Of a DNA stretch of 64,000 bases, positions 9,187-23,157 are shown one piece after another. Made by a program: the position numbers and the translations under genes. The stretch is from a virus (taxonomy: Duplodnaviria > Caudoviricetes). Every line of letters begins with the position of its first letter. The stretch's first letter is position 1. The DNA is taken from positions 10,771 to 74,770 of IMG/VR virus record IMGVR_UViG_3300027804_001810. One strand, given 5' to 3'. The notes below the pieces were generated by a model. It saw only the letters and a program-made list of their open reading frames with translations. It was not told the origin of the DNA and searched no databases.

Positions 9187-11010
9187 TTAAGGCACAATTA
9201 GATCTAGTTGTCTCACATCAAATTCTGATGTCTTAATATCTATATGATTTTTAGTGAAGGGAGTTTCGTGCAGATGTGCGTTCTGATATCCAGCTCTGGT
9301 TGGATCTGGCATACTAGGATCAGATCCATCAGTACCAGCAAACACCATAAGTTTTAAACAACCAAGATATTTAAACAGATCAAAAATACCACATGCTTGA
9401 CCAATGATAACCATGTTCTTATGTCTAACAATATAGTCCATTAGATCTTGCAATTCATATTTGTTTAGAGGTTCAGTTCCATCAAAAGTTTTTTGATTTT
9501 TAAACACACCAGTTTTATTAGTCATATTAACAAAAACTCTATAACCCTTCTCTTTCATCTTATCAACAACACTTTGCCAGAAAGTATCTTCCATTTGCCA
9601 ACTATCACCTCTTTCTGGAAATAAAATACAGGTCTTTTCCTCAATATCTTTTTTTGCCTTTAGGTCATAGTCATATGCCTTTTGAAGGACTCCAGTATTT
9701 TGAATGTTGCTACAAAAATCCCAATAATTAAATGGCATGTGCGCCACTTTAAGTTTGCCATAACGATGAGCTTCTGCCATACAACGTGAATCTTGAGGGA
9801 AGAATCCATTACAAGACATCATGATTTCATTTTGATCAAATGGATATCCTGTATTATTCCATATATCTCCATCAGGATACACAACAACTTCCAGACACTT
9901 GTGAGGATATGGGGTATAATTATCTAGAACAAATTTAATTCCATTAAAAACTCTCTTTTGGCAAAGAATCTTATAAGGAACAGGTGAACGAGATTCTAAA
10001 AACATAGTAGCTGCAGTAGCATCTCCCATGCCCCAAGCCATTAGATACCAATTTTCTTTTTCGAAAATTGATCGATCAATGTTCGCAACTTCTTCTTTTG
10101 TTATCTCTCTAACATGTACTGACATTGGTTTTAAAATCTCCTCTAATTTTAGAAATGTTTCTGTTGTTGTTTGCGTATGATAATTAGTTGCATTATATAA
10201 TGTGCGATTATAAAAACACTCTAAATCAGAAACATGAACATTATCTTTTGTTTGGCAAATAAGAATTTTATCCTCATCCAAAACATTTCTGTTTTGCATT
10301 GATATTGCCTGAAAAGCGCCAGAATTCTTAGCTACAATTATATCACAAAAAAGACTAAAATATGCGTTATGAATAATGTCAGACTCATGATTTCCAAAAA
10401 TATTTGGAGTATGAATTACATTATTGTTTAATGGATTAGTACCTTCATTGTTTGTATAGTAAAAATCATATTCTGGAAGTAAACCAGCAATCCTATCAAT
10501 TTTGGGTATCCAGTCTTCATTATCAGTTTGCCCAGATCTTCCTTTAATATTCACAAAAAGAACTTTTTTACGTGAATTATTTTTAAGGATATCAATTGAA
10601 TTTAGAGAATGTTTATCTAAAATTGATTCAAAATCAAAATTCAATCCAAGATCGTCAGGAATTTTTATATCAAAATTATTTTTTTCAAAAACATACTTCC
10701 AGAAATATTTTTGATTGGATACCATATCATATGGATATAGAATCTTAAGAGCTTCTGCACCATCAACATATAAATGATGATAAGATCGATCCCCAAACCA
10801 AGTAGGGATATTAATATCCCCACATAAAGTATTGGTTGGATTTAAATTTGGTACTGTCTTTAAAAATATTTCTGGAATAATAGTTCCATCTCCACCACGA
10901 ACATATTGATAATATTCATTGTCTGGATATTTTTCTATTAATAGATTAAGAAATGGAATCGTTAAAATAAAATCACCAAGATGACCTTCAGTATAAAAAC
11001 ATACTTTCAT
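9187..11010 (-). CDS. Two-domain glycosyltransferase-like hypothetical protein (607 aa)
   Basis: Two GT9-like starts, GHLGDFILTIPFL and WGMGDATAATMFL; internal Met at the apparent junction. Confidence 0.5.
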   Translation of the reverse strand: MKVCFYTEGHLGDFILTIPFLNLLIEKYPDNEYYQYVRGGDGTIIPEIFLKTVPNLNPTNTLCGDINIPTWFGDRSYHHLYVDGAEALKILYPYDMVSNQKYFWKYVFEKNNFDIKIPDDLGLNFDFESILDKHSLNSIDILKNNSRKKVLFVNIKGRSGQTDNEDWIPKIDRIAGLLPEYDFYYTNNEGTNPLNNNVIHTPNIFGNHESDIIHNAYFSLFCDIIVAKNSGAFQAISMQNRNVLDEDKILICQTKDNVHVSDLECFYNRTLYNATNYHTQTTTETFLKLEEILKPMSVHVREITKEEVANIDRSIFEKENWYLMAWGMGDATAATMFLESRSPVPYKILCQKRVFNGIKFVLDNYTPYPHKCLEVVVYPDGDIWNNTGYPFDQNEIMMSCNGFFPQDSRCMAEAHRYGKLKVAHMPFNYWDFCSNIQNTGVLQKAYDYDLKAKKDIEEKTCILFPERGDSWQMEDTFWQSVVDKMKEKGYRVFVNMTNKTGVFKNQKTFDGTEPLNKYELQDLMDYIVRHKNMVIIGQACGIFDLFKYLGCLKLMVFAGTDGSDPSMPDPTRAGYQNAHLHETPFTKNHIDIKTSEFDVRQLDLIVP

Positions 11011-20896: not shown

Positions 20897-22399
20897 TCAG
20901 AAACGGAAGGTCGTCTGAATCACACCACCATAGTTGTCGGAAGCTTGCTTCAGACCTTGGTTGTTGGACACATAGAAGACCGCAGGAGTCACACTGATAG
21001 CATCACTAACTTTATAACGATAGAATGCTTCCCACATAATTGCCTTCTGATCAGCAGCAAGAGAAGCAGCATTACCAGGAGCACCGATGGCAAAACCAGC
21101 AGCATTACCCTTGGCAAACACATCGCTCCATTGAAGACCTGCCATCCAAGTTTGTGAATCGGTGGCACCAGTAGGAGTCGTGCGGTTGTTAGACAGACTT
21201 ACGGTGTTCCAACCATAAGCACCACTCACAGAAGGAATGATACCCGACTTCTTGGGTTGCCAGTAAGCATTCAGAGCATAACCATTGGAGGTTTGGTTAG
21301 CGCCAAGAGCACCAGATCCACCACCGATAGCATTGAAGTTACGAACACGAGTACCTTCAGTACCATAGCGATAACCGAATGCGATACCGTACTGAGGAGC
21401 ACGATAACCAACTTGAGCAAGAGTGTTCAGAGAACCATCTTCATCAAACTGACCTTTGGTAGAATCGTTTCCGTTCTGGGCAACATAGTTCACACCAGCA
21501 ACGAAACCGCCTTTACCCTTCTTACCAGGTTGTACCCACTGAGCACCGAAACCAGAACCAGTTGCCTTGTTGTAAACACCAGGAGCACCAGCAACTGAGA
21601 AGAAGTCCAGAATATCAGACTTGTATGCAGTAGGAACCCATGCCATTTCCGTGTTACGAACCAGAGCACCAGCAGTCAGGGTTACACCCTTAGCAAGTCC
21701 AGGAAAGCTGTAGTACAGACGATCAAGAGTAACTTGGTTTGCATAGGTTTCTGCCTTGTCCAGTTTGAACAGAGAAGATGAAGAACCGAAAGGTTGTGAA
21801 GAGAAGTTGCCAGAACGCAGACGGGTCTTGAGTAGATCCTTACCAGTGAAGGAAGTATCAAAACTCAGGCGGAGGTCATAGTTAAAAGCAGTGTTGCCGA
21901 CGTTGCTGCTGTTAGCAAGACGAGCACCATCTACACCACCCAGAACAAAGGTTGCTTCACCTTTCAGTTTGGTGGTAGTGGAGAACTGCTGTGCCTGAAG
22001 GGCAGCAGACTGCTTCTCCAGTTTAGCAACGCGACCACGAAGAACTTGAAGTTCATTGGCGAACTCATTCGCAAGACGATTGAGTTCATCAGTAACTTCA
22101 GTCACACGATCAAGACAAGCATTCAGAAGTGCTGCTGCTTCAAAACGGGTCATTGCCTTACCACCAAGGTAAGTTCCGTTTTCATAACCAGCAACACAAC
22201 CATAACGTTCTACGAGGTTGCTGAGTGCCTGATATGCCCAATCCGTAGGACGGACATCAGACAGTTGTGTGACGCTAGAAACCTGTTCTGTGGAAGTGTA
22301 TTGGTTGACTGCTGCCATATTAAGATCTGCGGCATTCGCAGCAACAGGAGCAACCATTCCCAAAGCAACAGGTGCAAGCATCAGTTGTTTGATTTTCAT
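20897..22399 (-). CDS. som: Som-type cyanobacterial outer-membrane porin (SLH + OprB-like barrel)
   Basis: Signal peptide; SLH (SDVRPTDWAYQALSNLVERYGCVAGY...MTRFEAAALL); coiled coil; FSTTTKLKGE; terminal TTFRF. Confidence 0.93.
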   Translation of the reverse strand: MKIKQLMLAPVALGMVAPVAANAADLNMAAVNQYTSTEQVSSVTQLSDVRPTDWAYQALSNLVERYGCVAGYENGTYLGGKAMTRFEAAALLNACLDRVTEVTDELNRLANEFANELQVLRGRVAKLEKQSAALQAQQFSTTTKLKGEATFVLGGVDGARLANSSNVGNTAFNYDLRLSFDTSFTGKDLLKTRLRSGNFSSQPFGSSSSLFKLDKAETYANQVTLDRLYYSFPGLAKGVTLTAGALVRNTEMAWVPTAYKSDILDFFSVAGAPGVYNKATGSGFGAQWVQPGKKGKGGFVAGVNYVAQNGNDSTKGQFDEDGSLNTLAQVGYRAPQYGIAFGYRYGTEGTRVRNFNAIGGGSGALGANQTSNGYALNAYWQPKKSGIIPSVSGAYGWNTVSLSNNRTTPTGATDSQTWMAGLQWSDVFAKGNAAGFAIGAPGNAASLAADQKAIMWEAFYRYKVSDAISVTPAVFYVSNNQGLKQASDNYGGVIQTTFRF

Positions 22400-22556: not shown

Positions 22557-22612
22557 ATCATAGCATAACCGTATCAGATGTGTCAATTAAGATACGGTTA
22601 AGGTTTTTTAAG
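22557..22612 (-). promoter_or_regulatory. Porin promoter with Pho-box-like repeats and a 10-bp inverted repeat
   Basis: TTGACA(22586-22581)-N18-TGcTATGAT; CTTAA repeats at 22612, 22602 and 22591; TAACCGTATC-N15-GATACGGTTA at 22566-22600. Confidence 0.55.
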
Positions 22613-22684
22613 AGCGGAGTATCGGAATCGAACCGACGACATCTAACTTGGAAGGATAGCGTTCTACCGCTGAACTAACTCCGC
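22613..22684 (-). tRNA. trnG: tRNA-Gly(UCC)
   Basis: GCGGAGT acceptor, anticodon loop CTTCCAA. Confidence 0.95.
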
Positions 22685-22760
22685 AATGGTGGGGATTTAC
22701 CCAGCCTCAGGTTTCCCTTCACAGGCACGGAACCCCACGCACATTCCTTCACACGGACGA
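22685..22760 (-). ncRNA. Candidate kink-turn-containing small RNA / structured leader of the tRNA-Gly precursor
   Basis: Outer stem GTGGGG/CCCCAC; inner GCC-TGT-GA-AGG-GAAA-CCT-GA-GGC is a standard k-turn capped by a GNRA loop. Confidence 0.6.
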
Positions 22761-22764
22761 AAGA

Positions 22765-22793
22765 AGTATATGACATAACGAGTATTATGTCAA
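22765..22793 (-). promoter_or_regulatory. Sigma70 promoter with perfect palindrome
   Basis: TTGACA-N17-TATACT; TGACATAA-N6-TTATGTCA at 22771-22792. Confidence 0.75.
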
Positions 22794-22794
22794 G

Positions 22795-22867
22795 AGCCCC
22801 CGACAAGACTTGAACTTGCGACATCGGCTTTACAAAAGCCGCGCTCTACCAGCTGAGCTACAAGGGC
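22795..22867 (-). tRNA. trnT: tRNA-Thr(UGU)
   Basis: GCCCTTG acceptor, anticodon loop TTTGTAA. Confidence 0.95.
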
Positions 22868-23157
22868 AAAACAGAAGGTTTATGATAAGAAGTAAGACCA
22901 GCGTGTAATTCTCTATGGCAATTAGCACAAAGCATATAACACTTGTCTGCTTCTTTTTTCTGTTTTTCTAAAGATTTTGTAGAACCAGAAATTTGAAACT
23001 CTTTTGTGTTTTCATTAATGTGATGAAACTCTAATGCTTCAATACATTTATCATAACCACAAAATTCACACTTCCCGCCTTTATATTCAACAAGAAGTTC
23101 TTTTGTTTTTTTTCTCCAATTACCTACATTTTTCTTTAGTTTTTCTTGGTCTCTCAT
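22858..23157 (-). mobile_element. Free-standing HNH endonuclease inside the tRNA cluster
   Basis: CEFCG...LEFHH...KC..LCANCHRELH; the stop codon overlaps the tRNA-Thr 5-prime end. Confidence 0.85.

Follow-up and report, generated by a model that had tools for sequence, protein, structure and literature searches.

The DNA analysed here is a stretch of 64,000 nucleotides (nt), positions 10,771 to 74,770 of the IMG/VR record IMGVR_UViG_3300027804_001810, which we call the window. It is a fragment of a T4-like cyanophage, and the source record, 74.8 kb long, is about 36% complete. The minus strand carries every gene of the region around the spacer that separates tRNA-Thr(UGU) from tRNA-Gly(UCC). 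This spacer, 109 nt long, holds a gene for a predicted small RNA of about 74 nt built of two parts, a 5′ tail with antisense complementarity to a host tRNA (below, the head) and a hairpin that contains a kink-turn (Table 1). An initial annotation of the locus, made from the sequence alone, had placed a TTGACA-N17-TATACT promoter in front of this RNA; both hexamers are present, and a promoter scan matched 11 of 12 consensus positions, making it a near-consensus sigma-70 promoter. The -35 TTGACA is kept in 136 of 205 related loci. Among relatives, the -10 hexamer is followed either by 6 nt and then GUGUGAAG, or by 10 nt ending in GUCC, with a G at +1 either way, from which we infer that the primary transcript begins with GUGUGAAG or GUCC-GUGUGAAG. 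The small RNA lacks a terminator of its own in the window and, as annotated, abuts tRNA-Gly, its last four nucleotides (CAUU) lying directly before the first nucleotide of the tRNA.

The outer GUGGGG/CCCCAC stem and the inner, bulged, GAAA-capped hairpin described initially were located with all their features on the minus strand, the inner part GCC-UGU-GA-AGG-GAAA-CCU-GA-GGC occupying 22726-22704. By sequence the hairpin has all the features of a standard kink-turn, as had been claimed: a 3-nt bulge, tandem G.A/A.G pairs, and the canonical (C) and non-canonical (NC) helices. Related copies were gathered by pattern scans of IMG/VR and Joint Genome Institute (JGI) metagenomes, which gave about 205 instances in viral and metagenome contigs, from uncultured, mostly freshwater phages; from these, 77 distinct core-plus-flank sequences were taken and 76 aligned. 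Standard pairs fill 94% of the cells of this alignment, versus 85.5% in shuffles, and sliding the 3′ partners drops pairing to 31-57%. Seven pairs change on both sides, and the observed covariation score was reached by none of 500 shuffles. The covariation that the initial annotation had called for as a check is seen in the outer stem, where both-sided changes affect 5 of 7 pairs, and in the NC stem, where two pairs show compensatory change (GC/AU 39:36 and 30:16). The NC stem occurs as AGG/CCU, AGAG/CUCU, AGA/UCU, AGGA/UCCU, UGGA/UCCU and GGAGU/ACUCU and is mostly 3-5 base pairs (bp) long, reaching 10 bp in one relative (L376), and its cap varies among relatives to include the non-GNRA loops UUCG, UUUAU, CAUA and AAAA.

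The side of the C helix is near-invariant (UU-CCG-U-GCC / GGC-UGG-G-UAA-A-U), with correlated changes in this lower region from C/G to U/U (22730 with 22701) and from U-A to C-G (22732 with 22696). The C helix itself reads GCC/GGC in 76 of 76 sequences, with C:G at -1b:-1n; this was partly imposed by the search patterns, and is retained also in copies ascertained by their flanks. The bulge has 3 nt in all sequences, U-G/A-U. The GA...GA core is found in 64 of the 66 copies ascertained by flanks alone, the other two having AA at 1b-2b; since the pattern constrained the flanks alone, this conservation is no artefact of ascertainment. Thus, the kink-turn hairpin is a real, recurrent and conserved RNA module, and the fold score of the spacer (z = -3.2), the approximately 205 copies and the covariation together show that the element is more than chance.

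Other readings of the same nucleotides were rejected. A micro-ORF (open reading frame) of 15 codons, from AUG at 22744 to UAA at 22699-22697, is excluded because relatives have 2 nt more in the NC stem-loop, together with compensatory changes in the helices, and lack the AUG. A T-loop or pseudo-tRNA reading of GGGG-UUC...AAAU-CCCC is broken by CACC/CAUC variants, and the tRNA model gave no match. No likeness to host RNase P RNA was seen on inspection of the Rfam alignment.

The hairpin belongs to no named family, in agreement with the initial annotation. No Rfam 15 family overlaps 22685-22793, either at gathering thresholds or at E <= 10, the flanking tRNAs being the only matches, and relatives with other hairpin types likewise gave Rfam matches to tRNAs only. 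The kink-turn core was not found by blastn in 50,697 deposited phage genomes, its pattern had no matches in 185,579 bacterial and archaeal genomes (one per prokaryote species), and a search of 151 host-family genomes with the covariance model gave no significant match. Phage genomes that allow a judgement hold a single copy each. When copies truncated by a contig end are left aside, a tRNA begins 7-16 nt past the core, or 3-5 nt past the outer stem, in about 175 of 191. Gly(UCC) accounts for 111 copies, Met(CAU) for 48 and Leu(UAA) for 25, and a few copies have no tRNA nearby. Three genomic contexts recur. In the one represented by the window the order is tRNA-Thr, promoter, leader, hairpin and tRNA-Gly; in another an ORF precedes the promoter, leader and hairpin, and tRNA-Leu or another tRNA follows; in the third, the hairpin lies between tRNA-Ile(UAU), 4-6 nt upstream, and tRNA-Met, ~4 nt downstream, with neither promoter nor leader. 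A few relatives have an ORF (MPHANKEDLKRYQ... or MPRKRKTSADCD...) between the hairpin and the expected tRNA (in L316 from ~3090, and in L274 and L322 after the element), which looks like a putative homing-endonuclease insertion. Tail-fibre genes and small ORFs neighbour the hairpin and are uninformative as to a protein partner.

The initial annotation had also noted that the bulged strand is repeated in the 5′ arm, and the 8-mer UGUGAAGG does occur twice in the minus strand (22753-22746 and 22723-22716). The strand exchange proposed from this repeat had to be abandoned: the 5′ copy shows no covariation with the NC stem, and the leader contains no conserved complement of the C stem. We replace it with an antisense reading, because the 5′ copy belongs to a segment of 16-20 nt that is antisense to tRNA-Val(CAC) of the host Synechococcus/Cyanobium. 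The head is complementary to nt ~20-41 of this tRNA, a segment made up of the anticodon loop, the anticodon stem and the 3′ side of the D stem; in the window the predicted duplex contains one 1-nt bulge.

In a complementarity search made without a presupposed target, the reverse complement of the leader core GUGUGAAGGAAGUG had one perfect match per genome in four of four freshwater Synechococcus/Cyanobium genomes, where chance would give about 0.02 matches of this 14-mer per genome, and all four matches were the anticodon arm of tRNA-Val(CAC). BLAST of 91 nt of the window also returned tRNA-Val(CAC) as the top match in 4 of 4 host-type genomes, and exact matches between leaders and the antisense tRNA extend up to 18 nt, the entire reverse-complemented arm. 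The 14 commonest leader variants are predicted to form duplexes of 15-21 bp with the tRNA at -28 to -36 kcal/mol, values equalled by none of 300 shuffles, and the net gain after unfolding the secondary structure of the tRNA amounts to -14 to -21 kcal/mol. Predicted pairing of the head with the phage's own tRNAs (-10 to -24 kcal/mol), with the host small RNA Yfr1 (-19 to -25 kcal/mol) or with the 3′ end of 16S rRNA (-7 to -11 kcal/mol) is clearly weaker. Leader variants differ chiefly by 1-nt bulges between the kept pairing blocks GUGUGAAG, GAAG and UGCG. Most predicted folds leave the 5′ tail entirely or for the most part unpaired; it is paired in the minimum-free-energy fold of a few variants.

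Of 151 host-family genomes, 83 share an identical 19-nt target arm, mainly those of at least 2 Mb. The perfect arm is nearly always missing from genomes below ~2 Mb, which may be Prochlorococcus-like or incomplete metagenome-assembled genomes (MAGs). The distribution suggests that the target exists in the Synechococcus/Cyanobium part of the family alone. No site complementary to the head was found inside the phage genomes. The second copy of UGUGAAGG, in the bulged strand of the kink-turn, likewise complements CCUUCACA in the anticodon arm of tRNA-Val, a match that is shorter in relatives with other NC stems; we are undecided whether this repeat is a coincidence or a trace of the insert's origin.

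Table 1. Positions of the small RNA gene, its parts and its neighbours in the window, and of the terminator-ended genes in two cultured phages.
Feature	Position	Strand	Remarks
tRNA-Thr(UGU)	22794..22867	-	ARAGORN and Rfam; upstream of the small RNA
-35 hexamer TTGACA	22788..22793	-	directly after tRNA-Thr
Inverted repeat UGACAUAA...UUAUGUCA	22771..22792	-	9 bp; overlaps the -35 hexamer and the promoter spacer
-10 hexamer TATACT	22765..22770	-	17-nt spacer from -35
Putative transcription start, G	22758	-	7 nt past -10; inferred from spacing
Head, predicted single-stranded 5′ segment UCCGUGUGAAGGAAUGUGCG	22738..22757	-	antisense to host tRNA-Val(CAC)
Kink-turn hairpin, whole module from outer stem to outer stem	22689..22738	-	covariance model score 76.5 bits
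Outer stem P1, 5′ strand GUGGGG	22733..22738	-	pairs with 22689-22694
Lower region, 5′ strand UU-CCG-U-GCC	22724..22732	-	C helix, bulged U, internal loop
Kink-turn bulge UGU (L1-L3), then G1b A2b	22719..22723	-	L2 varies G/A
NC stem AGG/CCU with GAAA cap	22709..22718	-	covaries among relatives
G2n A1n of the tandem sheared pairs	22707..22708	-	inside CUGA, D-box-like
Lower region, 3′ strand GGC-UGG-G-UAA-A-U	22695..22706	-	partner of 22724-22732
Outer stem P1, 3′ strand CCCCAC	22689..22694	-	pairs with 22733-22738
Linker CAUU (4 nt) before the predicted RNase P site	22685..22688	-	abuts tRNA-Gly
tRNA-Gly(UCC)	22612..22684	-	ARAGORN and Rfam; its 5′ processing would create the 3′ end of the small RNA
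Stand-alone small RNA gene, phage S-SM2	GU071095 22933-23056 (L467 1201-1324)		
Stand-alone small RNA gene, phage Bellamy	MF351863 24333-24454		

The head is not confined to loci with a kink-turn. A scan with the pattern TTGACA-N29-33-GTGTGAAGGAAGTG matched at least 120 viral contigs, and about a quarter of the matches listed carry the kink-turn. The head continues as a plain GNRA-capped hairpin followed by a tRNA, as the kink-turn hairpin followed by a tRNA, as a larger multi-helix insert in the same hairpin, or directly as an intrinsic terminator. In this last form it is a small RNA gene of ~50 nt. Two cultured marine phages, S-SM2 and Bellamy, carry it, and in them TTGACA-17-TAATAT is followed by 6 nt, GUGUGAAGGAAGUGCG and the terminator; in S-SM2 it stands immediately after tRNA-Thr, which is the order of the window. 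An annotated hypothetical protein of S-SM2, SSM2_029, overlaps the small RNA promoter and tRNA-Thr, and this ORF call is probably spurious; the match in Bellamy also lies under an annotated hypothetical protein. In phage S-SRM01, the only match of a blastn search with the leader against deposited phage genomes, the head is followed by a plain hairpin and tRNA-Gly.

Complete phage genomes have one copy of the head. A general start sequence of early promoters was rejected on the ground of this single copy. As there is moreover no complementary phage site, the head can be neither a sequence generic to promoter-proximal positions nor directed at a target within the phage. The promoter with its antisense head is a single-copy small RNA gene spread across cyanomyoviruses. 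Comparison of the forms points to the head as the common unit, with the kink-turn as a freshwater-lineage insertion into the terminal hairpin of the RNA. In six loci (L397, L379, L394, L407, L411 and L458) the head is followed by a hairpin UGAGAGUG...CACUCUCA that encloses three small hairpins, possibly a four-way junction of ~60 nt. Rfam gave no match to it, and it may represent a further structured insert without a name, placed where the kink-turn lies in other loci. The searchable literature yielded no relevant mention of the head sequence.

The 3b:3n pair, whose identity governs how kink-turns fold, is A-U in 59 of 76 sequences and U.U, A.A, G.U or C.U in the rest. A Watson-Crick pair at 3b:3n leads to poor or no folding in metal ions, and good metal-ion folders have C at 3b or G at 3n (Lilley group; PMC8191799 and PMC4382518). 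Under this rule the mostly Watson-Crick or U.U pairs predict that Mg2+ alone would not fold the cyanophage kink-turn, and that a protein or tertiary contact would be required. As far as geometry goes, the GAAA loop could conceivably reach across the kink and dock with the conserved internal loop. The fit is poor; the idea is weakened because loops that are not GNRA occur and NC arms of 3-10 bp stand beside an invariant C helix. We favour recognition of the kink-turn core and the C-helix side by a putative partner. Because the 3b:3n pair predicts that Mg2+ alone would not suffice for folding, and because NC arms are free to vary in length, the most likely role of the kink-turn would be that of a protein-binding platform, the protein being one outside the L7Ae family. 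Searches for L7Ae (PF01248), in which the positive controls matched, found nothing over the Pfam cut-off, neither in the 81 host-family genomes searched nor in six phage records, among them that of the window and one that is 100% complete.

Taken together, these results suggest that the locus is the gene of a phage small RNA, about 74 nt long and composed of two parts, an antisense head and a kink-turn platform, that acts on host tRNA-Val(CAC), a reading to which we assign a probability of roughly 0.5. Transcription from its own promoter would start at about G22758, and a cut by RNase P at the 5′ end of tRNA-Gly (22685/22684) would free the RNA. This is the route to the 3′ end already proposed by the initial annotation, and it is the obvious one given the constant spacing of 3-5 nt before the tRNA and established tRNA processing; between tRNA-Ile and tRNA-Met, release would also need 3′ processing of the upstream tRNA. 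The free 5′ tail would then pair with host tRNA-Val(CAC), nucleating at the fully complementary 7-nt anticodon loop, and the paired tRNA would be sequestered or opened to cleavage specific for double strands. GUG makes up 49% of valine codons in the host and 15% in the phage (a crude count over long ORFs), and the phage encodes a tRNA-Val(UAC) with an anticodon stem that is not complementary to the head, so a GUG-rich host would be hurt more than a GUG-poor phage with its own tRNA-Val(UAC). The kink-turn would meanwhile serve as a platform for a putative protein outside the L7Ae family. The fuller proposal that this is an early, single-copy cyanomyovirus RNA which disables host tRNA-Val(CAC) and skews translation towards the AT-rich phage, with the kink-turn recruiting a non-L7Ae binder, we put forward only tentatively. 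A role connected with tRNA primers is unlikely, because no reverse transcriptase was present in four phage records.

Several observations weigh against a small RNA acting on tRNA-Val(CAC). Stoichiometric sequestration would be demanding, given the tight folding, the modifications and the great abundance of mature tRNAs, and the hosts probably have other tRNA-Val species that read GUG. Most freshwater variants of the head, that of the window included, carry 1-nt insertions relative to perfect antisense. No protein that would bind the kink-turn was found. Finally, in 43 copies the hairpin is present between tRNA-Ile and tRNA-Met without the antisense head, and because this context lacks the head, the role of the hairpin is separable from it; a separate anti-tRNA head was not found in two fragments of such phages that are only 13-28% complete.

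These 43 copies also bear on the possibility that the element is purely a leader or spacer of pre-tRNAs acting in cis, which insulates the tRNAs, sets their processing by RNase P or RNase Z, or protects the precursor, the excised piece being a by-product and the complementarity to tRNA-Val a relic of tRNA-derived ancestry. The bare spacer between tRNAs without a promoter, the strict distance of 3-5 nt to the tRNA in three different contexts and the missing terminator in the window would all fit such a role. However, some 30 invariant nucleotides and a kink-turn core would be superfluous for a generic processing hairpin, the head also stands alone and terminator-ended with no tRNA downstream, and a few kink-turn copies have no tRNA near them. 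The head, moreover, keeps its pairing blocks and confines its variation to single-nucleotide bulges. We therefore consider a purely cis-acting element rather unlikely.

A further possibility is that the 5′ tail is a sponge for Yfr1, binding its motif ACUCCUCACAC and thereby derepressing porins such as the som-like one after tRNA-Gly. Host-type genomes do carry Yfr1 (RF01116, 63-66 bits), a porin gene follows tRNA-Gly in both the window and S-SRM01, and the complementarity, although partial, reaches the -19 to -25 kcal/mol given above. Yet bulges and mismatches are needed in every pairing, the canonical head GUGUGAAGGAAGUGCG perfectly complements tRNA-Val and not Yfr1, Yfr1 is not among the best genome-wide matches of the leader, and downstream of the stand-alone version in S-SM2 lies a tail fibre and no porin. 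A Yfr1 sponge is thus very unlikely. We think as little of the 5′ segment as a mimic, be it of a tRNA-His-like anticodon arm recognized by tRNA-guanine transglycosylase or another enzyme, with a hairpin CUUCC-GUGUGAA-GGAAG presenting U33-G34-U35 as decoy or substrate, or of a Shine-Dalgarno sequence, with AAGGAAGUG titrating 30S subunits. Some variants (L242) hold the full reverse-complemented arm, so that a 5-bp stem with a 7-nt loop is possible, the Shine-Dalgarno-like AAGGAAGUG is one base off AAGGAGGUG, and cyanomyoviruses often carry genes of the queuosine pathway. In the class with 6-nt spacing, however, the transcript starts at GUGUGAAG and the 5′ strand of the stem is missing; conservation reaches into GUGCG, which the antisense reading alone explains; and the pairing predicted with the 16S 3′ end (-7 to -11 kcal/mol) is weak. 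The Yfr1 and the anti-Shine-Dalgarno sponge were both rejected because their pairing is weaker than that to tRNA-Val.

Least probable of all, in our estimate, is a feature of the DNA itself, either an inverted relic of a tRNA-Val gene fragment or an attP-like core for the host tRNA-Val gene. An identity of 14-18 bp to the host gene, centred on the anticodon loop, a classic sublocation for integration, would suit it. But the identity reaches neither end of the tRNA gene, so that integration would destroy the gene, and T4-like cyanomyoviruses are lytic. The segment always lies 6-10 nt past a consensus promoter and before a hairpin with a terminator or a tRNA, which is the architecture of an RNA gene, and the G-U pairs of the hairpin fit the tRNA-sense strand only. 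None of these alternatives covers together the invariant core, the terminator form and the length of perfect complementarity.

The cyanophage RNA resembles several known systems in part. With standard kink-turns (Kt-7, box C/D, the U4 5′ stem-loop and riboswitches) it shares a C helix ending in C:G, the 3-nt bulge, tandem G.A/A.G pairs and the NC helix; its non-bulged strand reads CUGA, like box D, and its A-U or U.U at 3b:3n is also seen in protein-dependent kink-turns. In contrast to these, it lies in a phage hairpin of ~50 nt fused to a pre-tRNA, has about 20 additional invariant nucleotides on the C-helix side (a bulged U and a G-UAA internal loop), and is not accompanied by the usual L7Ae-family protein in the phages and host family searched. 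Archaeal box C/D small RNAs that guide 2′-O-methylation of tRNA also combine a kink-turn with antisense to a tRNA anticodon arm. When we compared the cyanophage RNA with them, CUGA was present, the C-like strand read GUGAAG (versus RUGAUGA) and there was no C′/D′ pair; the antisense lies 5′ of the terminal stem and not between boxes. Fibrillarin and Nop5 are not expected in bacteria. The resemblance is one of analogy and not of membership. Stem I of T-box riboswitches, too, joins a kink-turn with pairing to a specific tRNA anticodon. In the cyanophage RNA, however, pairing over 16-20 nt would open the fold of the tRNA; a specifier loop, distal platform, antiterminator and T-box sequence are all missing, as is an Rfam match, and the downstream gene is an unrelated tRNA.

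Further parallels are found among small RNAs linked to tRNAs, such as the Escherichia coli 3′ETS-leuZ sponge (an external transcribed spacer, ETS), T4 RNAs C and D, plant tRNA-snoRNA (small nucleolar RNA) genes and the tRNA-miRNA (microRNA) units of murine gammaherpesvirus 68 (MHV68). In these, a functional RNA is cut from a tRNA precursor by tRNA-processing enzymes, as we propose here, and the stable RNAs C and D, compared by description only, likewise lie within the tRNA cluster of a T4-like phage. The cyanophage RNA differs in having its own promoter, another structure and another proposed target, a host tRNA. Like the trans-acting small RNAs of phages, it joins a promoter and a single-stranded 5′ seed to a hairpin or terminator at the 3′ end, as is clear in S-SM2. 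It is preceded by a promoter of its own and ends at a defined point, an intrinsic terminator in copies of the S-SM2 type and a predicted RNase P cut in the window, and its 5′ tail offers an accessible seed with conserved, specific complementarity. Unlike in phage trans-acting small RNAs, however, the best complementary host site is a tRNA and not an mRNA, and no described precedent for a phage small RNA antisense to a host tRNA was found in the searchable literature. The RNA is, in short, a phage small RNA of a known general kind, made with the help of tRNA processing.

Some further features of the locus deserve mention. One arm of the inverted repeat UGACAUAA...UUAUGUCA is the -35 hexamer, and the repeat is kept in most loci like that of the window and in S-SRM01; it could be an end or processing signal for the tRNA-Thr transcript, or an operator. 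Loci in which an ORF lies upstream and tRNA-Leu or another tRNA downstream have a different inverted repeat that uses the -10 hexamer instead. A second near-consensus promoter (22557-22586, minus strand; TTGACA-18-TATGAT with an extended -10 TG, 11/12), with CTTAA-type repeats around it, lies between tRNA-Gly and an ORF for a 500-amino-acid porin (20897-22399); S-SRM01 has a porin after tRNA-Gly as well. The porin of the window is host-like, its nearest cellular relatives being from freshwater Synechococcus/Cyanobium. Porin relatives of 49-89% identity also occur on contigs L326 (RGYP01000505.1), L327 (CALGUV010000018.1), L330 and L333, binned as Gammaproteobacteria, Microbacteriaceae, Sphingobacterium and Acidovorax MAGs, which are probably mis-binned cyanophage or picocyanobacterial DNA. 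The window also contains a full-length wcaG RNA (RF01761; 15279-15376, minus strand; 104 bits) and an ORF for 99 amino acids (22858-23157) that overlaps tRNA-Thr.

The kink-turn hairpin represents a new structured RNA family, built on a known motif and missing from Rfam as well as from the deposited phage genomes and cellular genomes searched, and the occurrence of a kink-turn in a lineage that appears to lack L7Ae points to some other binder or an unusual mode of folding. The near-perfect antisense head suggests that a virus may influence a tRNA of its host in a previously undescribed way. Should the antisense relation be functional, host tRNAs would be a categorically new class of target, and this RNA would, if our reading is true, be the first antisense RNA of viral origin directed at one. 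Phage and host pairs that can be cultured exist for this gene (S-SM2/WH8017, Bellamy/WH8109 and S-SRM01/KCZYC6). A functional RNA would add RNA-based reshaping of the host tRNA pool to the encoding of tRNAs by phages, tRNA repair and the countering of anticodon nucleases, and would help to explain why cyanophages carry particular tRNAs.

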